Of a stretch of DNA of 64,000 nucleotides, positions 1 to 13,142 are shown piece by piece; position 1 is the first letter of the stretch; each line of letters begins with the position of its first letter. The notes beneath the pieces were generated by a model that ran no database searches, was not told the DNA's origin, and saw nothing but the letters and a program-made list of their open reading frames with translations. This DNA comes from an uncultured Gammaproteobacteria bacterium (GTDB lineage Bacteria > Pseudomonadota > Gammaproteobacteria > Steroidobacterales > Steroidobacteraceae), in contig CAVYCL010000014.1 of NCBI GenBank assembly GCA_963766915.1, positions 253,159 to 317,158 on the forward strand, given 5' to 3'. Made by a program: the position numbers and the translations under genes.

Positions 1-615
1 CGCGCGAAAGCCCAGGTCCTCGAGCTCGAGCTTCACCGCATACAGGCCGAGGCGCTCGGCGATGGGCGCGTAGATCTCGAGCGTCTCGCGCGCGATGCGC
101 CGCCGCTTCATGGGCGGCATCACGCCGAGCGTGCGCATGTTGTGCATGCGATCGGCGAGCTTCACCATGATGACGCGGATGTCGCGCACCATGGCGAACA
201 GCATCTTGCGGAAGCTCTCGGCCTGCGCCTCCTGGCGATTCTTGAACTGGATCTGATCGAGCTTGCTGACGCCGTCGACGAGATCGGCGACCACCTGGCC
301 GAATATCGACACGATTTCCGCCTTGGCGGTCGGCGTGTCCTCGATCACATCGTGCAGGATCGCGGCGACCAGGGTGTCGGCGTCGAGCTTCAGATCGGCG
401 AGGATGTCGGCGACCGCGACCGGATGGGTGATGTAGGGCTCACCCGAGACGCGCTTCTGACCTTGGTGGCGCTCGGCGCCGAAATCGTAGGCCTCGCGCA
501 CGCGCTCGACTTGCGCGGGGGGCAAATAGCCTTCGAGCTTATCTAGGAGCTGGCTGATCCCCGTGGTACGTCTTCCACCGGGTAAGAATCCGAGTATGGA
601 AGACGCATAATCCAT
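1..615 (-). CDS. spoT: bifunctional (p)ppGpp synthetase/hydrolase SpoT/RelA family, N-terminal part (partial; continues beyond window start)
   Basis: The minus-strand frame is open to the window edge. Translation MDYASS..ISQLLDKLEGYLPPAQVERVREAYDFGAERHQGQKRVSGEPYITHPVAVADILADL..AAILHDVIEDT..MVKLADRMHNMRTL matches the HD hydrolase domain of RelA/SpoT proteins. It lies directly downstream of rpoZ in the classic gmk-rpoZ-spoT order. The ATG at 615 is tentative. Confidence 0.9.
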   Translation of the reverse strand, partial: MDYASSILGFLPGGRRTTGISQLLDKLEGYLPPAQVERVREAYDFGAERHQGQKRVSGEPYITHPVAVADILADLKLDADTLVAAILHDVIEDTPTAKAEIVSIFGQVVADLVDGVSKLDQIQFKNRQEAQAESFRKMLFAMVRDIRVIMVKLADRMHNMRTLGVMPPMKRRRIARETLEIYAPIAERLGLYAVKLELEDLGFRA

Positions 616-633
616 CGGTGCCTGGGGGTGTGT

Positions 634-912
634 TTAGTCCCCTAAGCCAAGCTGCGGAGCGCGGAAGTCCGACGGAATCTCCATATCGTTCGTCGGCTGC
701 TGCACCGGCTCTTCGGGTTCCTCGAGCATCTCGAGCGTGATGTTGCCCGCCGCGATTTCGCGCAGTGCAACCACGGTCGCCTTGTCGTTTTCCCATTCGA
801 CGGTCGCTTCCGCGCCGTTCGCCAGGCGCCGTGCGCGCTTGGCCGCGAGCAGCACCAGATTGAAAAGATTCGGCTCGTTCTGCAAACAATCCTCGACGGT
901 AATCCGCGCCAT
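634..912 (-). CDS. rpoZ: DNA-directed RNA polymerase subunit omega
   Basis: 92-aa [33 protein letters not shown].. has a typical omega N-terminus and sits between gmk and spoT. Confidence 0.95.
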
Positions 913-1009
913 GGCTCTTCGGGGTTCGTTAAATGGATTGCCAGCATAGCAGAGAACCCACCCCTCCGCCCAGCGGCGGGGCGGCCGGTGCTGGGGCCGG
1001 GCCGCCGGC

Positions 1010-1633
1010 TTAACCCAGCAATTCCACGGCCAGCCGGGCCACCTGGGGGCGGCTGCCCCGCAGCGCCTCGCCCTTCTCGCGGACGATGGCCTGAAAATCG
1101 GTCACCGCCTGCTCGAAGCCGTCGTTGATCACCACGTAGTCGAATTCTATCCAGTGGGCGATGTCGCGCTGCGCGTCCTGGAGGCGGCGCCGGATCACGT
1201 CCGGGGAGTCGGTGCTGCGCGCCGTGAGGCGCTCCTCGAGGGCGCGACGCGTCGGCGGCAAGATGAAGATGCTGTGTGCCGTCGGCATGCTTGCGCGCAC
1301 CTGCCGCGCGCCCTGCCAGTCGATCTCGAGCAGCAACAGCTTCCCCGCCGCCAGCGCCTCGCGCACGGTCGCGCTCGCCGTGCCATAGAAGTTGTCAAAC
1401 ACCTGCGCGTGCTCGAGGAACTCGCCCCGCTCGACCATCCGCTGAAACTCGTCCGGGGTGATGAAATGATAATCGCGGCCCTCGACCTCGTTGGTCCGCG
1501 GCGCGCGTGTCGTGTAGGAGACGGAAAAGCGCAGCTCCGGCTCGCGCGCCATCAAAGCCTTCACGAGACTGGTCTTGCCGGCCCCGGATGGCGCAGAAAC
1601 GACGTAGAGCCGTCCGTGAGACTGCATACCCAT
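1010..1633 (-). CDS. gmk: guanylate kinase
   Basis: 207-aa ORF with P-loop [11 protein letters not shown] and guanylate kinase motifs (SYTTRAPR.., [12 protein letters not shown]). Confidence 0.95.
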
Positions 1634-1640
1634 GCGATTA

Positions 1641-1657
1641 CGCTATCCGAGGTTCAC
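1641..1657 (-). repeat. most decayed copy (DR0) of the yicC 3'-end core, 9 nt upstream of the gmk ATG
   Basis: The minus strand reads GTG AAC CTC GGA TAG CG, versus native yicC GTG CAG AAC ATC GAA TAG CG. That is 15/17 identical after a 3-nt gap, with the stop codon in the same position. Confidence 0.4.
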
Positions 1658-2096
1658 TTTGTTCGGGCCACTACGGCGCCCGCAAGTGTAGCCTCGTCCC
1701 GCGCGACAGACCACCTTGCGATCGAGGAAAAATGCGGGTCACGGAGCGGCCGCTACCTGCCCGCGGTAAACTGCGAGCCGCTAAGACGGACAGATCACAA
1801 TTATGCGGGATGCACGGATCGCGCTTCATATGGAGCCTCGTCTGCAAGGCGTCAGTGGGCGCTCTCATTGCTATCCGCGGCGGCGGGGTGTGCCACGCAC
1901 TCGCATAAATAGCGGTGAATGAGCTAGTTAAGAGAGCGGCATCTTGTGGCGCAAGGAATTGATTCTTCTATGGTGCACCGGCGCCGATGCTCGTATTAGG
2001 AAAGTTTGCGAATTGATTCTCGGAAGCGGTCGGTAATATCCGGTGCTTGGGGTCGCTCTGATTATCCGCCATCCGCGCGAACGGTGTAGGGTACTG

Positions 2097-2765
2097 ATGA
2101 TGAGCCCGCACGATGTTGAGCATCACACATCGCCAGAGCTTCTCTCACGCGTGGACCACCTCGTCTACGCGGCTGGCGACCTCTGTCGAGGCATCGCCGA
2201 GATCGAGCAGTTACTCGGAATCCGCGCGAGTTTAGGTGGACGACACCGCATCTGGGGTACGCAAAACGCGTTAGTAGGCTTGGGGTCGAGGTGCTATCTG
2301 GAGATAATCGCCCCGGATCCTGAGTATTCGCCCAGCGCGAGAGCGCGTCCATTTAATCTGGATCAGGATGCGCCCTCTCGTCTGGTCGCCTGGGCCGCAA
2401 ATGCGACCGAACTCGAACTACTACGGGCCGCCGCTTTTCGGTCCGGAGTGACGCTTGGCGATGTGCAGTCTGGCAGCCGGCAACGGCCGGACGGTATCGT
2501 ATTGCGCTGGACGCTAACGGATCTGTGCTGCGTTGTCGCTGACGGAATCATTCCGTTCTTCATTGATTGGGGGCCGTCATTCCATCCTGCGCCTACCGCA
2601 GCTGCTGGTGCGGCACTCGCAAGTCTGCGCGCGCAGCATCCCAATGCTGGCCAAGTAAGCGAGATGCTTCGCGCACTCGCGCTGCCGCTTTCCGTAACGA
2701 TCGGGCGTGGACCGGCCTTGATCGTTGAAATCGATTCTCCGAAGGGCCGAGTGCTGCTCTCGTAG
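2097..2765 (+). CDS. VOC/glyoxalase-like domain protein (Glyoxalase_3-type)
   Basis: The ORF contains VDHLVYAAGDLCRGIAEIEQLLGIRASLGGRHRIWGTQNALVGLGSRCYLEIIAPDPE, typical of glyoxalase-like domain proteins. The start is uncertain (GTG at 2043 or ATG at 2097). It lies in the AT-richer islet. Confidence 0.75.
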   Translation: MMSPHDVEHHTSPELLSRVDHLVYAAGDLCRGIAEIEQLLGIRASLGGRHRIWGTQNALVGLGSRCYLEIIAPDPEYSPSARARPFNLDQDAPSRLVAWAANATELELLRAAAFRSGVTLGDVQSGSRQRPDGIVLRWTLTDLCCVVADGIIPFFIDWGPSFHPAPTAAAGAALASLRAQHPNAGQVSEMLRALALPLSVTIGRGPALIVEIDSPKGRVLLS

Positions 2766-2874
2766 ATGCTGCCCGTACGGGCTACCCCGATTGTACGAAG
2801 GGCCTACAGACGTTCGCGGGGGAGTTGAGGAGAATTCGCCCAACGCTGTTGGAATTGCTCTTTACGGCGTATCG

Positions 2875-2915
2875 CTCCCCCCGAGCCGTCTACAAAGCGC
2901 CTCGGGGGGAGTTTT
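2875..2915 (+). terminator. rho-independent terminator after the VOC gene
   Basis: Perfect 11-bp inverted repeat CTCCCCCCGAG..CTCGGGGGGAG followed by TTTT. Confidence 0.6.
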
Positions 2916-3003
2916 CGACTCGCGCAGCAGCATGCCGCAATGCCCTTCTACTGCAGGCGGTCGTCCGCGTTCTCTCAGCAGCCCATCTTGAGCGGAGTGG
3001 TAC

Positions 3004-3330
3004 ATGATCGGCGTATTCGTGACGTTTCGCTACGCGGACAAGTTCGACGAGCAAGCCGTGCGGAAGATCGCTGAGACCACACGCGTAAAGTTTGAAGGAA
3101 TGCCGGGCCTACGCTCAAAGGCATTCACACTCAATTCCGGAGAGCGTGAGGCCGCGAACTTCTACGTTTGGGATTCAGAGGACGCAGCAAAAGCGTTCTT
3201 CACGGATCAGTTGCTCGAGCGCGTGGCCGGTCTCTACGGAGTGCGCCCTAGCGTCGAGTTCGTACAAATTGCGGCACTCGTGGAGAACCGGGAACACGAG
3301 CGAGGGCCCCGGCGGATCCCACCGGCTTAG
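3004..3330 (+). CDS. YdhR-like putative monooxygenase (small dimeric alpha-beta barrel protein)
   Basis: 108-aa ORF MIGVFVTFRYADKFDEQAVRKIAETTRVKFEGMPGLRSKAFTLN..ANFYVWDSEDAAKAFF resembles the YdhR family. Confidence 0.65.
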   Translation: MIGVFVTFRYADKFDEQAVRKIAETTRVKFEGMPGLRSKAFTLNSGEREAANFYVWDSEDAAKAFFTDQLLERVAGLYGVRPSVEFVQIAALVENREHERGPRRIPPA

Positions 3331-3332
3331 GA

Positions 3333-3355
3333 CGCTACTCGATGTGCCGCACGCG
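3333..3355 (-). repeat. decayed copy (DR1) of the yicC 3'-end core
   Basis: The minus strand reads CGC GTG CGG CAC ATC GAG TAG CG, versus native CAG GTG CAG AAC ATC GAA TAG CG (18/23). It sits immediately after the ydhR-like stop. Confidence 0.55.
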
Positions 3356-3398
3356 CGAAGTGCGCTTTCGCGAGACCGTTTCGCGATTGCAAAATAAT

Positions 3399-3761
3399 TT
3401 AGGAGGAGCGTCTGGCGAGCTCGGCATCGGGCAGCACACGTTGGCCGCGAAGCACGCGGACGGCGCCGGCGATCTGTTCGGGAGCGATTGGTTGCGCATG
3501 GGAGTTCCCAAGCTCCGGGGTTACGAGTCGGAGCGGCGCGATCGCAAGGGCGTAACCATTTTCTCGCCGCGCTCGATTTCCAGCAGCCTCGTGCACGTTT
3601 CGAGCGCGGTTTTGCGCTCCGCAAAATAATCGTGCGTGTTGTACACGCCCTAAAGGCCGGGGAGTTGTCGTCGAGGCAACGCTCGGCCACCTCGCTGCGA
3701 ATGTAGCTACGCGCCCAGATGGCGCGGCAGGTCCTCGAAGTCCATGGACGCTGTTCGTCAA
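3399..3761 (-). pseudogene. decayed gene remnants, including a truncated ORF6N/KilA-N-like N-terminus
   Basis: Coding potential on the minus strand is broken over three frames. One frame ends ..PIAPEQIAGAVRVLRGQRVLPDAELARRSS*, which resembles the ORF6N N-terminal motif I..IRGQ+VMLD.DLA.LYGV but is cut after about 35 aa. No intact ORF remains. Confidence 0.4.
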
Positions 3762-3822
3762 TAATTGCCTGGTTTATAGAGAAATGCGAGCGATGGCGCG
3801 GCGGGCGCAAACAGCTCTGGAA

Positions 3823-3844
3823 GCTACTCGATGTTCTGCACCTG
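3823..3844 (-). repeat. near-perfect copy (DR2) of the yicC 3'-end core
   Basis: The minus strand reads CAG GTG CAG AAC ATC GAG TAG C, 21/22 identical to the native yicC end at 5182-5203. Similarity stops abruptly upstream of the core. Confidence 0.7.
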
Positions 3845-3963
3845 TTCGTGGGTACCGTTCATAGCTGTTGATCGTACACCGATCGAGGTTTGCTGCGCAT
3901 AGCTGCGGCCTAGCCACGCGGGCTGGAGGCCTTCGGCGTCGACCGCAGCCTGCCGGCGGCACT

Positions 3964-4230
3964 CTAGCGGCTCTGCACTTTCTCCTGCAGCCATACCTTG
4001 ATCAGCGACTGATACGGAACGTCCCTCGCATTGGCGGCCACCTTGATCGCGTCCAGCAAGTGCTGCGGTAGCCGCAGAGAAATGGTCTTCGTCGACGGCT
4101 TGAGGTTGGGGAAGGCCGCGGGTCGTGCCTTTCCCCAGTCGAGATACTCCGTGGAATCGTTCACCTCCCAAAACTTTCTCTCAGCCGCTTCGCTTGAGAA
4201 TTTAGGAATGGTCTTTTGGCGCTTGCTCAT
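3964..4230 (-). CDS. brnA: BrnA antitoxin (CopG/RHH-type)
   Basis: 88-aa ORF ..FWEVNDSTEYLDW..KTISLRLPQHLLDAIKVAANARDVPYQSLIKVWLQEKV is typical of the BrnA family. It overlaps the upstream brnT by 29 nt. Confidence 0.85.
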   Translation of the reverse strand: MSKRQKTIPKFSSEAAERKFWEVNDSTEYLDWGKARPAAFPNLKPSTKTISLRLPQHLLDAIKVAANARDVPYQSLIKVWLQEKVQSR

Positions 4231-4513
4231 AAACTACCCTTTCCTTCCTCGACATGTCCCGAGCCGATATCACTCGGATTGCGGTGCCCTCACGCCGCAG
4301 CGTGAATGTCAGATGCAGACGCCTACCGGCTGCCGTGACACCGAGCGCATGGTACCGAGGCTCCTCCTGGCTGTGAGGTTCATCATCGAGCAGCAGGAGC
4401 GGTGTGGAGAAAAACACCTCCTCTGCCTCGCCCGCAGAAACCCCATGACGCTCGTTCTTGCGGGCATTCCCCGCGTCCCAGTCGAACTCAGTGATCTTCG
4501 ATAAGTCGATCAA
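4202..4513 (-). CDS. brnT: BrnT ribonuclease toxin (DUF497)
   Basis: 103-aa ORF ..FDWDAGNARKNERHGVSAGEAEEVFF...RVISARDMSRKER matches BrnT/DUF497 hallmarks. Confidence 0.85.
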   Translation of the reverse strand: MIDLSKITEFDWDAGNARKNERHGVSAGEAEEVFFSTPLLLLDDEPHSQEEPRYHALGVTAAGRRLHLTFTLRREGTAIRVISARDMSRKERVVYEQAPKDHS

Positions 4514-4517
4514 GGCT

Positions 4518-4536
4518 GTATATTACCGTAATATAC
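4518..4536. promoter_or_regulatory. perfect palindrome GTATATTAC-C-GTAATATAC, candidate brnTA operator
   Basis: 9-bp arms with a 1-nt centre, starting 5 nt upstream of the brnT start codon. TA antitoxins commonly autoregulate through such palindromes. Confidence 0.5.
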
Positions 4537-4606
4537 CGGCACGGCAAACCGCTCGGGGATGGAGGGCCGGAAACCCAGGGCGCACGTCAGAGGAGGATCG
4601 GAAAGG

Positions 4607-4834
4607 TCATCTCTTTAGTGGGTCATTAACCGAGGATCTAACCTCATCCCATGACATAACGTCCGTCGGATCGGTCTCATGGTCAGCTAAGCGCCGATCC
4701 AGTTCGCGCTGCGGCTCCGTCAGCGAAACGGCCTCACCATGCGCCGCCATGCTGACCCAAAGCTCCTCGGCAAGTGACAGCCGCTCTTCGAGCCTAAGTC
4801 GATCTAGTCCAAGCGACTTTATTGAAATTGCCAT
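4607..4834 (-). CDS. addiction-module antitoxin component (TIGR02574/Unstab_antitox-like), no cognate toxin adjacent
   Basis: MAISIKSLGLDRLRLEERLSLAEELWVSM..LTEPQRELDRRLADHETDPTDVMSWDEV fits this antitoxin family. Only about 90 nt separate it from brnT, so there is no room for a RelE/ParE-type partner. Confidence 0.7.
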   Translation of the reverse strand: MAISIKSLGLDRLRLEERLSLAEELWVSMAAHGEAVSLTEPQRELDRRLADHETDPTDVMSWDEVRSSVNDPLKR

Positions 4835-5014
4835 ATTTCCAACCTGCACCCACCCCCACCGCGCATGCAAACCGAGAACATAGCGCGCACGTCCAACGTC
4901 CAAGTTGAGCGGGACGAGGCCGCGTGTCCGCTCTAACGCAAGTTAGACACCTGCCATGTTTGACGCATCCAACACACGCGGCCGCAACGATATGCCAAAG
5001 CTCTCGCACAAGCC

Positions 5015-5052
5015 GCGTAGCTAGAAAATCTAGCTACGCATTTAGCTACGCA
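5015..5052. repeat. inverted repeat GCGTAGCTAG-AAAAT-CTAGCTACGC plus a direct repeat of TAGCTACGCA
   Basis: Perfect 10-bp arms at 5015-5024 and 5030-5039. The decamer TAGCTACGCA occurs at 5031-5040 and again at 5043-5052. Confidence 0.5.
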
Positions 5053-5181
5053 ACCAGCCACGACAGTAGCCCCGACAAGGGAAAACGTCCAGAGACAATA
5101 ACTATCGCAAAACCCTAGTTTTGCAGGGGTTTCGCCCACTTTCGCAGGACAACCCGCGACACCCCCACGACAGCGGAAAAC

Positions 5182-5203
5182 GCTATTCGATGTTCTGCAC
5201 CTG
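5182..5203 (-). repeat. native yicC 3'-end core (DR3), reference copy of the repeat family
   Basis: The minus strand reads CAG GTG CAG AAC ATC GAA TAG C, the last codons plus stop of the full-length yicC. Confidence 0.7.
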
Positions 5204-6047
5204 CTCACGCATCTGCTCGATCAACACTTTCATGTCGACGGCAGCGCGGGTCGTCTCGATGTCCTGCGACTTGGATGACAGGGTGTTCGCCTCGCGATTC
5301 AGCTCCTGCATGAGGAAGTCGAGGCGCCGGCCCGCAGGCTCCTGGCCGGAGAACGCTTTGCGCACCTCGGCGACGTGACCGCGCAGCCGGTCGATTTCCT
5401 CGTCGACGTCGAGACGTTGCGCGAGGATGGCGAGCTCCTGCTCCAGCCGGTCGTGATCGACATCCGCCGTGAGCTGAGCGATGCGGTCGAGCAGCTTGGC
5501 GCGCATCCGGGCACGCACTTCCGGCAAGCGCTCCGCCACGCGGCCTGCAAATTCCATGAGCCCGGCGCAGCGCAGCTCGAGCGCCTCGCGCAGCCGGCCG
5601 CCCTCGCTGTCGCGGAACCGTGAGAGGTCAACGAGCGCTTCGCCGAGCAGCGCCTGCGCCGCCGCGATGAGCGCGGCGGAATCGCGGGTTTGATCGCGCA
5701 CCACGCCCGGCCAGCGCAACAGGTCGAGGACCTCGATGCGTGCCGCCGGGCCGGCCTGTCTCGGCGAGCTTGAGCGCCCGCTGCGTGAGGGCCCCGAGCA
5801 CCTCGGCGTCGATCTCGAGCGCGCCCGTGACCGTTGCCGGACGAAAATGCAGCGAGCACTCCACCTTGCCGCGCCGAACTGCGCTCGAGATGGCCTGCCG
5901 GAAATCGGCCTCGGCGGCCCGGAACTCCTCAGGCAGCCGGCAGCCAACTTCGAGATAACGATGGTTGACGGTCTTCAATTCCCATGCGAGCTGACCCCAC
6001 GGATATTGGCGTTCGCGCCGCGCAAAGCCGGTCATGCTACGAATCAT
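5183..6047 (-). CDS. yicC: YicC family stress-induced protein, with one apparent frameshift near 5755
   Basis: The N-terminal frame reads MIRSMTGFARRERQYPWGQLAWELKTVNHRYLE... The C-terminal frame reads ..LDLLRWPGVV..LDVDEEIDRLRGHV..GRRLDFLMQELNREANTLSSKS..MKVLIEQMREQVQNIE. Both are classic YicC segments in frames offset by one base. Confidence 0.85.
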
Positions 6048-6112
6048 AGGGGTCTCGAGCCGAAATCGGCCATAATTCGGGGCGAGTCTATCGGAGCCCG
6101 TAGGAGCTGTCA

Positions 6113-6860
6113 TTGCAGATCGAGACCGCGGATGTGAGCTTGATCGGCCATCGCGAAGAGAACCAAGATCGCGTCGCGGTGGCGGCGGGAGAGCATGCCG
6201 TGCTGCTTGCGGTCATCGACGGTATGGGCGGTCATGCCGAAGGAGCGCGCGCCGCGGAGACCTCGCTCGCGACCCTGATCGAGGCGTTCTGGCAGACGCC
6301 TCATCCGATATTCGATCCGCTCGGGTTCCTGCATCTGTCGCTCGGCCGGGCGCACGAGGAAGTCGTGAAGCTCGGCGTCGGCCTCGAGCGTCGAGGCGCG
6401 TCCGCGCGCCACGTGCGCCGTGTGCCTGGTACAGGACTCGGCGGCCTATTGGGCGCACGTCGGTGACAGCCGGGTTTATCAGCTGCGTCAATCCAGGGTG
6501 CTGGAGCGCACCCGCGATCATAGTCATGTGGAGGTGCTTTTGCGCGAAGGACTGATTACCGAGGCCGAAGTGCAGGGACACCCCATGCGCAACTACGTCG
6601 AATGCTGCCTGGGCGGCGATGCCGCACTGCCGGAGATGAGCATCTCCTCGCGGCGGCGCCTCAAGTCCGGCGACGTGCTCCTGCTCTGCACCGACGGGAT
6701 GTGGGCCAACTTGAAAGATCAGGATTTCGTGCGCTTCGCGCAAACGTCCGGCAAGCCCTTGCGCGACTCGCTCACGGATCTCGGCACGCAGGCGGTCGCC
6801 GCCTCCGCGCCCTACAGCGACAACACCAGCGCCGCCGCGCTGCGCTTCAAGGCCGCATGA
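6113..6860 (+). CDS. PP2C-family Ser/Thr protein phosphatase, with one apparent frameshift near 6395
   Basis: ..[21 protein letters not shown].. then, in the +1 frame, ..[21 protein letters not shown].. are PP2C motifs. Start is TTG at 6113; the stop overlaps the rph ATG. Confidence 0.8.
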
Positions 6861-7579
6861 GCGTGCGACCGAGCGGTCGCGCGCCCGACGAGCTGCGGCC
6901 CTTGAGCTTCGTGCGCGGATACACGGCGCACGCCGAAGGCTCGGTGCTCGTGGGATTCGGCGGGACCCGCGTGCTGTGCACGGCGAGCGTCGAGGACGGC
7001 GTGCCGCCGTTCCTGCGGGGCAAGGGGCAGGGCTGGGTAACCGCCGAGTACGGCATGCTGCCGCGCGCGACGCACACGCGCAGCGCGCGCGAGGCGGCCC
7101 GCGGCAAGCAGAGCGGCCGGACGCAGGAAATTCAGCGCCTGATCGGCCGCGCGCTGCGCGCGGTGGTCGATCTCAAGGCCTTGGGCGAGCGCACCGTCAC
7201 GCTGGACTGCGACGTGCTGCAGGCGGACGGCGGAACGCGCACCGCCGCGATCACCGGCGGATTCGTCGCGCTCGCCGATGCCATCGACACGTTGATCAAG
7301 CGGCGCGCGTTGAGCGCGAATCCGATCCACGGACAGGTCGCCGCGATCTCCGTGGGGATCTATCGCGGCATCCCGGTTCTCGACCTCGATTACGCCGAGG
7401 ACTCGAACGCCGAGACCGACATGAATGTCGTGATGAACTCGGGCGGCGCCTTCGTCGAGGTGCAGGGTACGGCCGAGGGACATGCGTTTCGCCGGCATGA
7501 GCTCGATCAATTGCTCGACCTCGCCACGCAGGGCATTGCGCGGTTGCATGAAGCACAGCAGAGCGCCCGCACCGCTTAA
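6857..7579 (+). CDS. rph: ribonuclease PH
   Basis: [72 protein letters not shown] is near-textbook RNase PH. Confidence 0.95.
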
Positions 7580-8190
7580 AGATCTGGTGATCGCCACCGC
7601 CAATCCCGGGAAGCTGCGCGAGTTCCAGGCGCTGCTTGCGGGCTTGCCGTTCGTGCCGGTTGCGCAGCGGGCCCTTGGTCTTGACGACTCCCGCGGAGAC
7701 CGGTATCACGTTCGCCGAGAATGCACTGCTCAAGGCGCGTCACGCCGCGGCCGCGAGCGGTGCGGCCGCGATCGCCGATGACTCGGGGCTCGAGGTCGAT
7801 GCGCTCGGCGGCGCACCGGGCATCTACTCGGCCCGCTACGCGGGCGAGGCCGCGGGGGATGCGGCCGCCGTGGATGCGGCCAATAACGCGAAGCTCCTGG
7901 CCGCCTTGCAGGGCGTGCCGTTCGCATCGCGCCGCGCCCGCTACCGCTGCGCGCTCGTCTACGTGGACGGCCCCGGTGAGGTCGCGCCGCTGCATGCCGA
8001 GGGCGTGTGGGAGGGCTACATCCTCGAGGCGCCGCGCGGCTCCGGTGGATTCGGTTACGACCCTTACTTCTGGCTGCCCGAGCTCGAGATGACGGCGGCG
8101 GAGCTCGACCCCGAGCGCAAGAATCGCCTGAGTCACCGCGGCACGGCGCTCAAGGCGCTGCGGCGCGCGCTCGCCGAGCGTCTGCGATGA
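7548..8190 (+). CDS. rdgB: dITP/XTP pyrophosphatase RdgB, with one apparent frameshift near 7690
   Basis: [18 protein letters not shown].. then, in the +1 frame, [52 protein letters not shown]. The start is uncertain (ATG at 7548 overlaps rph). Confidence 0.8.
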
Positions 8191-8206
8191 GCGTGGGGCA
8201 CCTGCC

Positions 8207-9370
8207 ATGAGCGCCGAGTCGCTGCCGCTCACGCTGTACGTGCACATGCCGTGGTGCGTGCGCAAATGCCCGTACTGCGATTTCAATTCGCATCAGCTCA
8301 AGTCCGCCGCTCCGTCCGGCGACTACATCGACGCCTTGATCCGCGACTTCGAGGCGGAGCTTGCGGATATCGGCGCTCGCCCGATCGAGTCCATTTTCTT
8401 CGGCGGCGGCACACCGAGCCTGTTCGCGCCCGAGGCCTTTGCGCGGTTGCTGCAGGCATTCGCCTCGCGCAGCCGCGTCGCCGCCGATGCCGAGGTGACG
8501 CTCGAGGCCAACCCCGGCACCATCGAGCGCGGCCGCTTCGCCGGCTACCGCGACGCCGGCATCAATCGTGTGTCGCTCGGCGCGCAGACTTTCGCCGCGG
8601 CTGCGCTCGAGCGGCTCGGCCGCATCCATAGCCCCGAGGACACGCTACCGCGCCGTGGAGGAGCTGCGCGCGGCCGGGCTCGACAATTTCAACCTCGATC
8701 TCATGTACGCGCTGCCGGAGCAGACGCTCGAGCAAGCGCTCGAGGACGTGCGCCGCGCCTGCGCGCTGGCGCCCGCGCACATCTCGCATTACCAGCTCAC
8801 GCTCGAGCCGGGCACGGTGTTTCACAGTCGTCCCCCGCCGCTTGCCGGACGAGGACATCGCGTTGCGGATGCAGACCGAATCCCAGGCGCTGCTCGCCCA
8901 AGAGGGCTTCGAGCAATACGAGGTATCCGCCTACGCGCGTGAGGGCGCGCGTTGCCGGCACAACCTCAATTACTGGCGGTTCGGCGACTACGTGGGCATC
9001 GGCGCGGGCGCCCACGGCAAAATCACGGCGAGCCTGCCGCACGGGGTCCAGCGAACGGAAAAAGCCAAGCAGCCCCGCGACCTACCTCGAGCAGCTCGGC
9101 GCAGCGCCGGGCAGAGGCTCCAACGGGGAGCGAAAAGCGGTGGCCGCGGGCGATCTTCCCTTCGAATTCATGCTGAACGCGCTGCGACTCAACGAGGGTT
9201 TCGCGCTCGCGGACTTCGAGTCGCGCACCGGACTCGATGCGAGCGCCGTCGAGCCCGGGTTGCGCGCGGCGCTGGCACGCGGCCTGATCGAGTTCGCCGA
9301 GCCCCGATGGCGGGCGAGCGGGCTCGGGCGGCGCTTCCTAAACGATTTGCAGGCCGGTTTCCTGCCATGA
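8207..9370 (+). CDS. hemW: radical SAM heme chaperone HemW (YggW), with three apparent +1 frameshifts near 8640, 8835 and 9075
   Basis: YVHMPWCVRKCPYCDFNS (radical SAM CxxxCxxC) and GGGTPS are followed by conserved segments in successive frames: NFNLDLMYALPEQT; HISHYQLTLEPGT; YEVSAYAREGARCRHNLNYW. The reading then returns to the original frame. It follows rdgB as in other proteobacteria. Confidence 0.8.
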   Translation: MSAESLPLTLYVHMPWCVRKCPYCDFNSHQLKSAAPSGDYIDALIRDFEAELADIGARPIESIFFGGGTPSLFAPEAFARLLQAFASRSRVAADAEVTLEANPGTIERGRFAGYRDAGINRVSLGAQTFAAAALERLGRIHSPEDTLPRRGGAARGRARQFQPRSHVRAAGADARASARGRAPRLRAGARAHLALPAHARAGHGVSQSSPAACRTRTSRCGCRPNPRRCSPKRASSNTRYPPTRVRARVAGTTSITGGSATTWASARAPTAKSRRACRTGSSERKKPSSPATYLEQLGAAPGRGSNGERKAVAAGDLPFEFMLNALRLNEGFALADFESRTGLDASAVEPGLRAALARGLIEFAEPRWRASGLGRRFLNDLQAGFLP

Positions 9371-10157: not shown

Positions 10158-11450
10158 ATGGGCACGAAATACGAGTTGAAGAATCTTTCCTCCGGCAAGA
10201 CGGCCTCGCTGAACGCGTTGGCCGGCACCATCGGCCCGGAATGCCTGGATATTTCGCACGTCACCCGCGACCTCGGCATATTCACCTTCGATCCCGGGTT
10301 CATGGCCACCGCGAGCACGGAAAGCAAGATCACCTACATCGACGGCGATGAGGGCGTACTGCTCTACCGCGGCTATCCGGTGGAGCAGCTGGCGGAGAAA
10401 TCCTGTTTCCTGGAAGTCGCGTACCTGCTGATCAACGGCAGCTTGCCCGACAAGGCGCAGCTGCAGGCGTTCAACTCCTCGATCACGCGCCACACCATGG
10501 TGAACGAGCAGCTGCTCAGCTTCTTCGAGGGCTTCCATCACGACGCCCATCCGATGGCGATGGTTTCGGCGGTGGTCGCGTCCATGGCGGCGTTCTACCA
10601 GGACAGCACGGACATCAACGATCCGCGCCACCGGGAGATCTTCGCCCATCGCATCATCGCCAAGCTGCCGACCATCGCAGCCGCCGCCTACAAGCACACG
10701 CTCGGCCAGCCGTTCATCTATCCGCGCAACGATCTGCGTTATTGCGCGAATATGCTCAACATGTTCTTCGCGGTGCCGTGCGAGCCGTACGCGATCGACC
10801 CGGTGGCGGCGGAAGCCATGGATCTGTTGTTCATCCTGCACGCCGACCACGAGCAGAACGCGAGCACCTCGACGGTGCGCCTCGCCGGAAGCACGGGGGC
10901 GAATCCGTATGCCGCGATCTCTGCCGGCGTATCCGCGCTGTGGGGGCCGGCGCACGGCGGTGCCAACGAGGCCGTGCTCAACATGCTGGACGGCATCGGC
11001 TCGGCGGCTCAAATCGACAAGTTCCTGGCGCGCGTCAAGGACAAGTCGGACAGCGTCCGGCTGATGGGATTCGGCCACCGCGTATACAAGAACTTCGATC
11101 CGCGCGCGAAGATCATCCGCGAAATGTGCTACCGCGTGCTCGAGAAGCTCGGCAAGGGCGACAATCCGCTGTTCGATCTGGCACTCAAGCTCGAGGAGAT
11201 TGCGCTCAAGGACGAGTACTTCGTGTCGCGCAAGCTCTATCCGAACGTGGACTTCTATTCCGGCATCATCTACAGCGCGCTCGGCATACCGAGATCGATG
11301 TTCACCGTGCTGTTCGCCATTGCACGCACCGCGGGCTGGGTGGCGCATTGGCAGGAAATGGTCTCCGATCCCCACATGCGTATCGGACGGCCGCGGCAGC
11401 TCTACACCGGCCCCACACAGCGGGACTATCGCTCGATCGACAAGCGCTGA
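10158..11450 (+). CDS. gltA: citrate synthase (type II)
   Basis: [83 protein letters not shown]. Confidence 0.95.
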
Positions 11451-13142
11451 TGCCGTTGCGCGACATGGTGCGGCGGCCGGCGTGCGCGACCCGTGCGGCA
11501 GCACGCGTGGCCGTGGCTGCGGCAGGGATGCTGCTCGGCATCGCGGCGGCGCTCGCCGCACCGGCTGCGCCCGACGAGCCGCCGGCAAGCGCGCCGTCCG
11601 CGGCGCCAGCGCGCACGTATTGCGCGGACAAGGACACCCCCATCGCGCTCGGCAGCGCCCAGTGGAACGGCTGGGGCCACGGTCCCGACAACACGCGCTA
11701 CCAGCCCGAGCCCGCCATCCGGGCGACCGATGTTCCGAAGCTCGCGCTCAAGTGGGCCTTCGGCTATGCGGGCAGCGCGGGCGGTGGGCAGCCCACCCTG
11801 GTCGACGGACGGCTGTTCGTCGCGAGCGCCGCCGGCCGCATCTATTCCCTCGATGCGAAGAGCGCATGCATCTATTGGACCTATGACGCGGGCGCCGGGG
11901 TGCACACCGGCATCTCCATCGCGGAGCTGTCCGCGCCGCGCCACGGTGCGCCTTCCAAACAAACGAAGATGGGCAAGCACAAGATGACCAACGCGCACCT
12001 CGAGGTCATCAAGGCGCCGTGCGCGGCCTTGTTCGGCGACGACAAGGGCGCGGTGTACGCGCTCGATGCGCAGACCGGGGCGTTGCTGTGGAAGACCCAG
12101 GTCGAGTCGCACCCGCTCGCGCGCATCGAAGGGTCGACGCTCCATCTCGCCCGTCTGTACGTGGCGGTGGGCTCGAGCGAAACCGAGGCGGCCCGCAATC
12201 CGGGGTACGGCTGCTGCACGTTTCGCGGCAGTGTCGCGGCGCTCGACGTCGCGAACGGCCGTATCGAATGGAAGAGCTATCTGGTGCGCGAGGAGCCGCA
12301 GGCGGTGAGCAGCGCCGGCGGCGCCGCGCGCTTCGCGCCGGCCGGAGTCCCGGCGGAGGGGGCGCCCACCGTGGATGTGACGAGGAGCCTCTTATACGTA
12401 GCCACGGGAGATTCTGCCGACCCGGCGCGACCGCAGCCGTTGGCGGATGCGGTGGTCGCGTTAGGTCTCGCGGATGGCAAGGTGCAGTGGTCGCGGCAGC
12501 TCCCCTCGCCGCAAGCCGGCCTCGAACGCCTCGAGGGCCCGGCCGTGCTGCGCACGCCCGCGACCGGTCGGGAGACGATCCTCGCGAGCCAGCGCTCCGG
12601 CATGGTCTACGCCCTCGATCCGGAGCGCGCGGGCGAGGTGCTCTGGCAACTGCAGGCGGCCGCCCCGGACGCGCCGGGCGGCAGCAGCGCCGGGCGCGGC
12701 TGCGGATCATCGCAGTATCTACGTCCCGATCTCGGGACTCGAAGCACAGCCGCCCAATGAGGCGGGGAGCCTCACCGCCGTCGACATCAAGGCCGGAACG
12801 AAGCGCTGGCACATGCCTTCGCCCGTGCCGGCGTGCAGCTGGGGAGCGGCGAGCGCCTGCGCGCACGCGCAAGCACAACCGGTCACGGTGATTCCCGGCG
12901 CCGCGTTCTCGGGCTCGATGGATGGGCACCTGCGGGCCTATTCGACCATCGACGGCAAGATTCTCTGGGATTACGACACGGCCAAGGACTATCGCACCGC
13001 GAATCAGGTCAATGCCACCGGCGGATCGTTGCAGGCGGGCGGCGCGATCATCGTGAATGGCGTCGTGTACGTGAATTCCGGCGCCGCTGACCCGGGGCAG
13101 CCGGGCAACGTGCTTCTCGCTTTCTCGGTCGACGGAAAATAA
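11450..13142 (+). CDS. PQQ-binding-like beta-propeller protein (PQQ-dehydrogenase / polyvinyl-alcohol dehydrogenase-like), with an apparent frameshift near 12695
   Basis: Signal-peptide-like N-terminus; repeated ..G.VYALDA.TG..LW.. propeller motifs; the C-terminus continues in the +1 frame (..SIYVPISG..LTAVDIKAGTKRW..HLRAYSTIDGKILW..). Its ATG overlaps the gltA stop (TGATG). Confidence 0.7.

Follow-up and report, generated by a model that had tools for sequence, protein, structure and literature searches.

Three decayed integrative elements probably accreted in tandem at the yicC 3' end of an uncultured gammaproteobacterium

Known elements at the yicC 3' end and the locus studied

The 3' end of yicC is a published integration site for mobile elements of several kinds. 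It is used in Vibrio by the mobilizable genomic islands (MGIs) MGIVflInd1, MGIVmi1, MGIVchMoz6 and MGIVchUSA1, and in E. coli, Salmonella and Pokkaliibacter by IEEcoMOD1, IESenUSA1 and IEPplInd1, which are similar to Salmonella genomic island 1 (SGI1) (PMC8409611, PMC5704250). The islands GISpuPO1, GISspANA3, GIPspSM9913 and GI21 of Shewanella and Pseudoalteromonas are also yicC islands (PMC8978831), and reference phage-inducible chromosomal islands (PICIs) have been reported in yicC (bioRxiv 10.1101/2022.07.18.500453). A review of integrative mobilizable elements (IMEs) noted that elements can integrate at the distal att site and that composites can be transferred whole, and described tandem accretion under the model built on the integrative and conjugative element (ICE) ICESt1 and its cis-mobilizable elements (CIMEs) (Pavlovic et al. 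2004 and Bellanger et al. 2011, as reviewed in PMC5704250). Here we analyzed a 64-kb stretch of contig CAVYCL010000014.1 from an uncultured gammaproteobacterium (hereafter the window, meaning the whole 64,000 nucleotides), in which about 3.5 kb of DNA separates yicC from the guanylate kinase gene gmk. We consider it very likely that positions 1641-5206 represent the tandem accretion of three decayed integrative elements, referred to as segments A, B and C starting from yicC, at an attachment site (attB) that corresponds to the last ~25-30 nt of yicC. The first-pass annotation of this DNA had proposed successive insertions at this gene end and knew of no description of it as an integration hot spot, which the papers cited above contradict.

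Positions 1658-5181 have a GC content of 0.591 in comparison to a window mean of 0.661, which makes them the lowest-GC 3.5-kb stretch of the window, with values of 0.597, 0.608 and 0.577 for the three segments and 0.65 and 0.68 for the two flanks, in agreement with the earlier by-eye impression that the segments are richer in AT. No RNA family was found by Rfam at a permissive E-value in positions 1-9000, and neither a tRNA nor a tmRNA was found by ARAGORN over the window, so that an RNA gene is excluded as the att site.

Core copies, empty sites and intact elements

Four co-oriented copies of the yicC end, all on the minus strand on which yicC is encoded, bound the three segments (Table 1). 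Their positions and match counts in the first-pass annotation were reproduced, as was the distance between the TAG of copy 4 and the gmk ATG. Copy 2 matches the native end at 21 of 22 positions, extending to 23 of 25, with 17 central nt identical and with both differences falling in synonymous Glu codons, and it equals the att sequence of the elements in intact relatives. When the 64 kb were searched with the 23-mer, allowing up to 3 mismatches, only the native end and copy 2 were returned, with 0 expected. Copy 3 matches at 18 of 23 positions (17/20 in its best local block) and now encodes V-R-H-I-E-stop; its local-alignment score of 14 was reached in 1.3% of 300 dinucleotide shuffles, counted island-wide and on both strands. 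Copy 4 matches at 13 of 15 positions without a gap and at 15 of 17 with a 3-nt gap. The shuffling test proposed earlier for these two weaker copies thus supported copy 3, and also copy 4 within the predicted 45 nt before the gmk ATG (p ~0.0013), but not copy 4 when it was searched for anywhere in the 3.5 kb, where it stood at chance level in comparison to the shuffled island (p = 0.36). Att cores are retained on both sides of each unit, and att arms of the family type adjoin the first three cores (5182-5206, 3823-3847 and 3333-3355).

A homologous relic of the yicC end lies directly before gmk in five relatives (L001, L002, L082, L085 and L089; L numbers designate individual loci or contigs). 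In L082 and L089 it reads ...AGAACCTCGAATAATG, which contains the AACCTCG variant shared with copy 4 of the window, and in L001 and L002, the two closest relatives by Gmk, the decayed copy is kept before the gmk ATG with yicC more than 10 kb off. No exact match to the copy-4/gmk junction was found in a search of metagenome contigs. The relics in relatives make copy 4 an old inherited relic, not a chance match, and clearly the oldest copy, because it is common to diverged lineages. The earlier claim that identity falls with distance from the intact gene, as each insertion pushes older copies outward, thus holds for copy 4 as the oldest but not for copy 2, which is undecayed.

To place the insert in context, 80 loci around gmk homologues were fetched and yicC was located in each, giving 55 loci with yicC co-oriented upstream of gmk. 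The gap between the two genes was at most 200 nt in 46 of these 55 loci, and 0.8-7.5 kb in 9. In the empty sites, as had been predicted for relatives, the yicC stop is often only 6-30 nt from the gmk ATG, and the arrangement is often TAG, 6-9 nt and ATG, as in L005 (TAGCGATCGATG).

Occupied sites have direct repeats of ~25-30 nt and an integrase that starts ~190-300 nt past the yicC stop. L013 has a 7.5-kb insert with ~30-nt direct repeats of the yicC end at both sides, in which a tyrosine integrase (a 466-aa open reading frame (ORF), ~424 aa from the likely start) begins ~190 nt past the yicC stop and is followed by a gene for an ORF6N-domain protein (Pfam ORF6N, E = 8e-33). The insert in L015 measures 4 kb and shows the same repeats; it encodes a Fic protein, a MobA/VirD2 relaxase and an integrase that is truncated. 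Although yicC is inverted with respect to gmk in L022, L029 and L036, an integrase of 55-57% identity abuts the yicC 3' end in all three, and therefore the specificity is for yicC and not for the yicC-gmk junction; a second core copy lies 5.7 kb away in L022, while a single core copy was found in L029 and L036, with the integrase after yicC. Also occupied are L082-L086 and L089. Intact tyrosine-integrase elements at yicC 3' ends, which the first-pass annotation had suggested looking for, were thus found in L013, L022, L082-L086 and L089. Together with the empty sites and the att arms shared with relatives, these elements support its proposal of successive site-specific insertions that regenerate the gene end, leave older att copies between yicC and gmk and have since eroded.

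Decayed versions are present at other loci, namely L015, L044 and L002/L087. In L044, a 2.85-kb remnant with an integrase fragment lies between two identical 25-nt cores (4086 and 6940). In L087, which is on the same contig as L002, an array of more than 20 kb (cores at 10394 and 15308) contains IS91, MazE, a beta-lactamase-fold protein and an OPT transporter between cores. In L082, L085, L086 and L089, a gene for an OPT-family oligopeptide transporter (~10450-12670) separates the distal att core of the IME from gmk; by analogy with segment C of the window, this gene seems to be cargo from an older element that has eroded completely and is fixed in that lineage.

Decay of the three segments

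Segment A has the clearest intact relatives. The 88-aa BrnA of the window is indexed as an identical protein in 250 blocks of the metagenome and genome collection, of which eight contexts were viewed, and the same BrnA lies at the gmk-proximal end of intact yicC-integrated elements in L082-L086 and L089. Reading away from yicC, the elements of L082, L084, L085, L086 and L089 encode an integrase, a PF03432 relaxase and two small ORFs that match no family, then comes the region of the antitoxin homologue and BrnT, then BrnA and finally the att core. The integrases of the intact elements contain the Pfam domains Arm-DNA-bind_3, Phage_int_M and Phage_integrase, and the MobA/VirD2 relaxases of the A-type relatives and of L015 were confirmed by Pfam. 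L083, the closest relative by its flanks (86% identity on the yicC side and 91% on the gmk side), has a single intact A-type element of 4.2 kb that carries the integrase, BrnT and BrnA without a relaxase; a small ORF in it gave a weak, below-threshold match to the excisionase-like HTH_17. In L083, gmk follows 47 nt past the distal core, a further decayed relic is found at this 47-nt distance, and B and C are absent. The 47-nt spacer (TCGCGAAAGGGCGC...) was also compared with the window sequence beside copy 3, and since the similarity fades after 14 nt it was taken as chance. In L084, at ~10400-10450, a further A-type attL arm comes directly after an attR core.

The window is collinear with the intact elements from the yicC stop to ~5007 and then from ~4898 to copy 2, and where they carry ~3.5 kb (integrase, relaxase and two small ORFs) it has ~108 nt. 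In A, the BrnT and BrnA genes overlap by 29 nt, and the pair has the makeup of a BrnTA type II toxin-antitoxin system. The hairpin in the attL arm, ~60 nt past the yicC stop, is kept in L083, and the element may supply a terminator for yicC. By these alignments, A is an IME of the relaxase type that has lost ~3.5 kb including int and the relaxase gene. The element DNA is 88% identical to that of L082, L085 and L089, but identity is only 76-78% on the gmk and yicC sides, which indicates horizontal spread of the element; likewise, the identical BrnA occurs in genomes with gmk DNA just 76-78% identical to that of the window, and the module therefore spreads horizontally.

Table 1. Features of positions 1-6047 of the window, listed in order of position.
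Feature	Position	Strand	Basis or remark
spoT	1-612	minus	Pfam/ORF annotation
rpoZ	634-912	minus	Pfam/ORF annotation
gmk (guanylate kinase)	1010-1633	minus	ancestral downstream neighbour of yicC
att copy 4, GTGAACCTCGGATAGCG	1641-1657	minus	TAG, 9 nt, then gmk ATG
Non-coding part of C	1658-2096	none	no family-matching ORF, no Rfam match, no recognisable att arm
VOC/Glyoxalase_3 protein, cargo of C	2097-2765	plus	Pfam E = 3e-34
YdhR-like small protein, cargo of C	3004-3330	plus	Pfam ydhR 27.0 bits, cut-off 27.1 (weak)
attL arm remnant of C	3293-3332	minus	overlaps 3' tail of ydhR-like ORF on the other strand
att copy 3, CGCGTGCGGCACATCGAGTAGCG	3333-3355	minus	attR core of B and attL core of C; decayed
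Segment B	3356-3822		467 nt
Start of ORF6N-domain gene, ~29 codons, truncated	3414-3488	minus	76% over 25 aa to L013 ORF6N protein
Integrase pseudogene remnant of B	3545-3735	minus	tblastn with L013 integrase: 69% over 42 aa, E = 1e-15
attL arm of B, with one CGTAGCTA site at 3704-3711	3702-3822	minus	aligned to L013 and L008
att copy 2, GAACAGGTGCAGAACATCGAGTAGC	3823-3847	minus	attR core of A and attL core of B
Segment A	3848-5181
attR arm of A	3848-3963	minus	comparison with L083 attR region; conserved GTACCCAC flank
BrnA antitoxin (CopG_antitoxin, PF12441)	3964-4230	minus	Pfam E = 1e-33, 116 bits (cut-off 28)
BrnT toxin (PF04365)	4202-4513	minus	Pfam E = 5e-21, 75 bits (cut-off 34.5)
Orphan antitoxin (Unstab_antitox, PF09720), cargo of A	4607-4903	minus	Pfam E = 4e-11; region kept in L082, L084, L085, L088, L089
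Deletion scar of A	4899-5006	minus	~108 nt; blastn collinearity break against L082, L083, L088
attL arm of A	5007-5181	minus	collinear with intact-element attL arm of L083 and L082 up to ~5007
Terminator-like hairpin in attL arm of A	5106-5125	minus	TGCAAAACTAGGGTTTTGCG, then T-rich tail
Native att core, yicC terminal codons and stop, GAGCAGGTGCAGAACATCGAATAGC	5182-5206	minus	attL core of A
yicC (YicC/YloC endoribonuclease family), target gene	5183-6047	minus	Pfam YicC-like_N and YicC-like_C in two frames

The short repeat CGTAGCTA occurs four times in the 64-kb window, in comparison to an expectation of 0.37, and all four sites are in the island (three at 5016-5050 and one at 3704-3711); none of 100 shuffles reached four sites. 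In the intact elements checked, GTAGCTA is clustered ~140-260 nt past the attL core, just upstream of int, with one or two further sites ~65-100 nt before the attR core and nearly none elsewhere in each 20-kb locus. From this distribution, the repeats are most likely arm-type sites bound by the N-terminal domain of the integrase, because they cluster upstream of int and the integrase has an Arm-DNA-bind_3 domain. Three of the arm-type repeats survive in the attL arm of A, and the site in its attR arm is mutated and degenerate (GCAGCTATGCGC in comparison to GCGTAGCTACGC in L083). We favored this assignment over the earlier description of the repeats as iteron-like; replication iterons were rejected on the grounds that no Rep gene is found in any relative, the repeats are on both att arms and the integrase has an arm-DNA-binding domain.

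Segment B retains parts of a second type of element. The attL core with its arm (3702-3848) aligned to L013 2455-2610 with 126 identical positions in 157 columns (80%), the same region aligned to L008 at ~92% over 71 nt, and the element-side flank of copy 3 on the B side, GCACTTCGCGCG, is identical to the attR flank of L013. In addition, 3414-3703 is 78% identical at the DNA level to L013 3756-4050, covering the last ~60 integrase codons and the ORF6N start. The first-pass annotation had noted the truncated ORF6N start correctly and had stated that no segment contains an integrase, which is wrong for B: a frameshifted integrase 3' end is present, corresponding to about residues 395-459 of the 466-aa ORF, with clear homology from codon ~404 (at ~3701) to ~459 and with one in-frame stop and one frameshift. 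The arm-type site GCGTAGCTACA is fused directly to integrase codon ~404 at a deletion with CA microhomology, and int codons 1 to ~403 are gone. B is accordingly, by its homology to L013, an element of the int-ORF6N type collapsed to 467 nt.

A rival reading is that B, and possibly the other segments, came from a phage satellite similar to PICIs instead of from a conjugatively mobilised element. In the E. coli yicC islands that we inspected, int is followed by genes for helix-turn-helix (HTH), Rha and AntA/AntB antirepressor proteins, reference PICIs are among the elements reported in yicC (bioRxiv 10.1101/2022.07.18.500453), and in both L013 and B the gene that follows int contains an ORF6N domain and gives a weak signal of the Rha-like kind. 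Nevertheless, the L013 element has no primase or replicase, capsid-redirection or terminase-small-subunit genes, its cargo, as read from the translations, includes a 707-aa TIR/TPR-like protein and an IS91-type transposase pair (the related pair of L087 is Pfam-annotated), and MobA/VirD2 relaxases are encoded by the A-type relatives and by L015. A satellite origin is thus improbable in our judgment.

Segment C (1658-3332) retains only cargo, the VOC and YdhR-like genes, and a scrap of att arm. The cargo calls of the first-pass annotation stood for A and C (Glyoxalase_3, the weak ydhR-like match, BrnT, CopG/BrnA and Unstab_antitox). The arm remnant with its core is 76.7% identical over 60 nt to the attL core and arm of L008, and an internal repeat, D3, pairs 3310-3352 with 3799-3841 at 74%. 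For the VOC protein, homologues of 77-81% identity were traced in three other contexts, which are unrelated accessory neighbourhoods and none of which is at yicC, so the origin of the C cargo is not tied to an intact element. In L094 (815-5100), the closest VOC (Glyoxalase_3) homologues are beside an ArsR-type regulator, an ArsC-like low-molecular-weight phosphatase, a MIP channel and an acetyltransferase; this cluster resembles an arsenic-resistance cluster and hints at the kind of cargo from which C came.

These properties of C bear on another reading, in which the weaker repeats are chance matches, C and perhaps B are variable accessory regions that were never mobile, and only A ever integrated. 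It would fit the island-wide chance level of copy 4, the lack of a mobility gene in C and the many unrelated contexts of the VOC homologues. It is largely refuted, and we regard it as very improbable, since copy 3 is rare in the shuffled islands (p ~0.013) and has an attR flank of the L013 type on one side and an attL arm of the family type on the other, the integrase and ORF6N fragments in B are unmistakable, copy 4 lies at the exact predicted position (p ~0.001) and is kept in relatives, and C is absent from L083 and low in GC. Still more improbable, to the point of being nearly negligible, is an artefact of assembly or binning, in which a chimeric contig would have joined repeats of different strains. 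The window apparently comes from a metagenome-assembled genome (MAG), and a 1-nt frameshift in yicC could be a sequencing error; against this, an independent 915-bp contig from the Joint Genome Institute (JGI), L092, the sole contig returned for the YdhR-like protein, is 98% identical and spans the VOC 3' end, the YdhR-like gene, copy 3 and the start of B, which therefore excludes misassembly at that junction, the junction of A with copy 2 is common to L002, and the junction of yicC with the attL arm and the gmk junction are collinear with L083.

With respect to the flanking genes, RNase PH and rdgB lie beyond yicC on the plus strand. A +1 nt frameshift near 5759 breaks the window yicC in two; it is a single 1-nt insertion in comparison to the intact yicC of L083, and the gene is conserved apart from this extra nucleotide, which points either to a pseudogene of very recent origin or to an error in the assembly. 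While gmk in the empty-site relatives, 6-30 nt past yicC, is probably co-transcribed with yicC, the gmk-rpoZ-spoT genes of the window are 3.5 kb from yicC and presumably must use a promoter in 1658-2096, where none matched the sigma-70 consensus; a sigma-70 scan of 1600-5300 gave nothing above shuffles and did not find the gmk promoter. The window Gmk has at most 76% identity to proteins of MAGs from uncultured Gammaproteobacteria and Steroidobacteraceae, and the host is therefore a Steroidobacteraceae-like bacterium to which no genome of the collection is close.

Accretion history and comparison with described systems

The mechanism that would account for these observations begins with elements that encode a P4-like tyrosine integrase (Arm-DNA-bind_3, Phage_int_M and catalytic domain). 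This enzyme would recombine the chromosomal yicC end with an attP site that carries a copy of the yicC terminal codons, by an attP x attB exchange inside the ~25-nt identity block. The element would land between yicC and gmk, where its own copy would complete the yicC frame and a second core would be left at the far end, and repeated insertion at a core copy would stack elements head to tail. Internal deletions would then strip off the integration and mobilisation modules and leave immobile, att-flanked remnants similar to CIMEs. By analogy with HipAB on a Shewanella island of the yicC type, the surviving toxin-antitoxin genes (BrnTA and the orphan antitoxin) probably help the remnants to persist, and the remnants may recombine in cis or in trans because the native core and copy 2 share their 17 identical central nt.

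A different history of the same array, in which the distance from yicC is not a measure of age, has to be weighed against stepwise insertion at yicC: the array could have arrived as a pre-assembled composite, or B and C could have integrated at the distal att site of a resident A. It is consistent with L083, where A stands directly before gmk with the decayed relic 47 nt away and neither B nor C, with the undecayed state of copy 2, whose changes are synonymous only and which equals the att of the intact elements, and with the direct succession of A-type attR and attL arm in L084, and both distal-att integration and transfer of whole composites are known (PMC5704250). On the other hand, copy 4 with its AACCTCG variant is common to lineages whose flanks are only 76-78% identical and so is the oldest copy, erosion has gone much further in B and C than in A, and, as the L083 int is intact, loss of B and C there through Int recombination between cores is equally simple. 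We hold this history to be unlikely, though the least unlikely of the alternatives considered.

Several points weigh against tandem accretion at yicC as we have described it. As yicC carries a frameshift here, regeneration of a functional gene end cannot be claimed for the window copy. No intact integrase, excisionase or relaxase is present in the 64-kb window, so that nothing here shows current activity, and the function of the arm sites and the competence for excision are matters that we infer. The closest relative, L083, has neither B nor C, which may have disappeared there or been acquired here at the distal att of A, so that the outward-pushing chronology stands as a proposal. In addition, C contains no element-specific gene, its link to the family being ~40 nt of att arm (76%, E ~4e-4) and its bounding cores, and one of these cores, copy 4, is not significant without the positional prior.

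Compared with the described systems, the locus shows insertion at the yicC 3' end, direct repeats and a preserved end of the reading frame, with terminal codons intact at 5182-5206. A yicC-adjacent tyrosine recombinase is found in L013, L022, L029, L036, L082-L086 and L089, whereas the window has the ~60-codon remnant in B in place of an intact integrase, and it therefore holds decayed derivatives and not functional members. The integrases of L083 and L013, which are 69% identical to each other, are 45% and 44% identical over the full length to an E. coli yicC-adjacent integrase (E = 8e-91 and 1e-94). With the Vibrio MGIs and SGI1-like elements, the locus and its intact relatives share the target with its gene end preserved and a tyrosine integrase beside yicC, as well as the lack of self-transmission and, as in some of them, toxin-antitoxin genes (MGIVchUSA1 has 2); this likeness to the Vibrio integrases is by description, as the only partner compared by sequence is the E. 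coli integrase. In contrast to those elements of 20-37 kb, the intact relatives here are ~4-5 kb, the A-type ones carry their own MobA/VirD2-type relaxase, and the hosts are uncultured soil-type Steroidobacteraceae-like bacteria. By gene content, the intact relatives lack the backbone of the SGI1-like elements and MGIs mobilised by IncC or SXT/R391: mpsA, traG, traN and sgaC were absent from their called genes, the oriT mimic and the AcaCD/SetCD boxes not having been searched for.

The Shewanella and Pseudoalteromonas islands have int and xis at the left att and a toxin-antitoxin system near the right end that stabilises the island (PMC8978831), to which BrnTA at the gmk-proximal end of A is the parallel; the likeness is one of layout, with HipAB there in comparison to BrnTA here, and with 21 kb and functional int and xis there. 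In E. coli, a K-12 query placed across the yicC stop was not matched over 80% or more of its length in 1233 of 5425 complete genomes, and among the examples listed the match ends at the yicC stop or 13 nt before it. Both examples inspected (L090 and L091) have a co-oriented tyrosine integrase that starts ~190 nt past yicC, which is the same layout as here, and they are probably the PICIs reported in yicC; they differ in having satellite-type HTH, Rha and AntA/AntB regulators where the A-type elements have a relaxase and BrnTA. The gene order in these two islands is int, a hypothetical gene, an HTH gene and Rha/AntA-AntB genes, which is satellite-like, and in E. coli K-12 the genes dinD, yicG and ligB are found between yicC and gmk. 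PICI hallmarks (primase or replicase and packaging-interference genes) were not annotated in L013 or L082-L089, the B type having an ORF6N/weak Rha-like gene after int. As in the CIME model, att sites are kept on both sides of each unit and the integration or transfer modules are deleted, namely the int-relaxase block in A and int codons 1 to ~403 in B; that model was described for ICEs of Firmicutes at other target genes, whereas here three remnants are stacked without an intact partner.

From these sequence comparisons, the intact relatives are of two types, a small relaxase-bearing IME (A) and an int-ORF6N type (B), with a common integrase family and att site. A broader proposal, which we advance tentatively and at somewhat less than even chances, is that they form an undescribed family of minimal IMEs (~4-5 kb, with an Int_yicC-type integrase, a MobA/VirD2 relaxase, two small ORFs, an orphan antitoxin and BrnTA) that has a conserved GCGTAGCTA arm-site code and circulates horizontally in uncultured Steroidobacteraceae-like soil bacteria, that the specificity of Int_yicC has been kept from Enterobacteria and Vibrio to this lineage, and that the remnants of the window are perhaps still recombinogenic, as CIMEs, when such an element arrives.

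The structure is real and was read essentially correctly by the first-pass annotation, but it is of an ordinary, well-documented kind at a known hot spot and reveals no new mechanism; the present analysis adds the parent elements in their intact form and the motif of the arm sites, together with the remnant of the integrase and the junctions left by the deletions. The finding explains why two housekeeping genes that normally lie 6-30 nt apart, and are probably co-transcribed, are here separated by an odd low-GC insert of 3.5 kb, and it offers a worked example of element decay in which the intact form and the deletion junctions are both visible. The conserved candidate arm-site motif could serve to find more such elements. 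Targeting of the yicC end, known from islands of Vibrio, Shewanella and enterobacteria, is thereby extended to deep-branching soil Gammaproteobacteria, with an integrase that is still recognisably homologous (44-45%).

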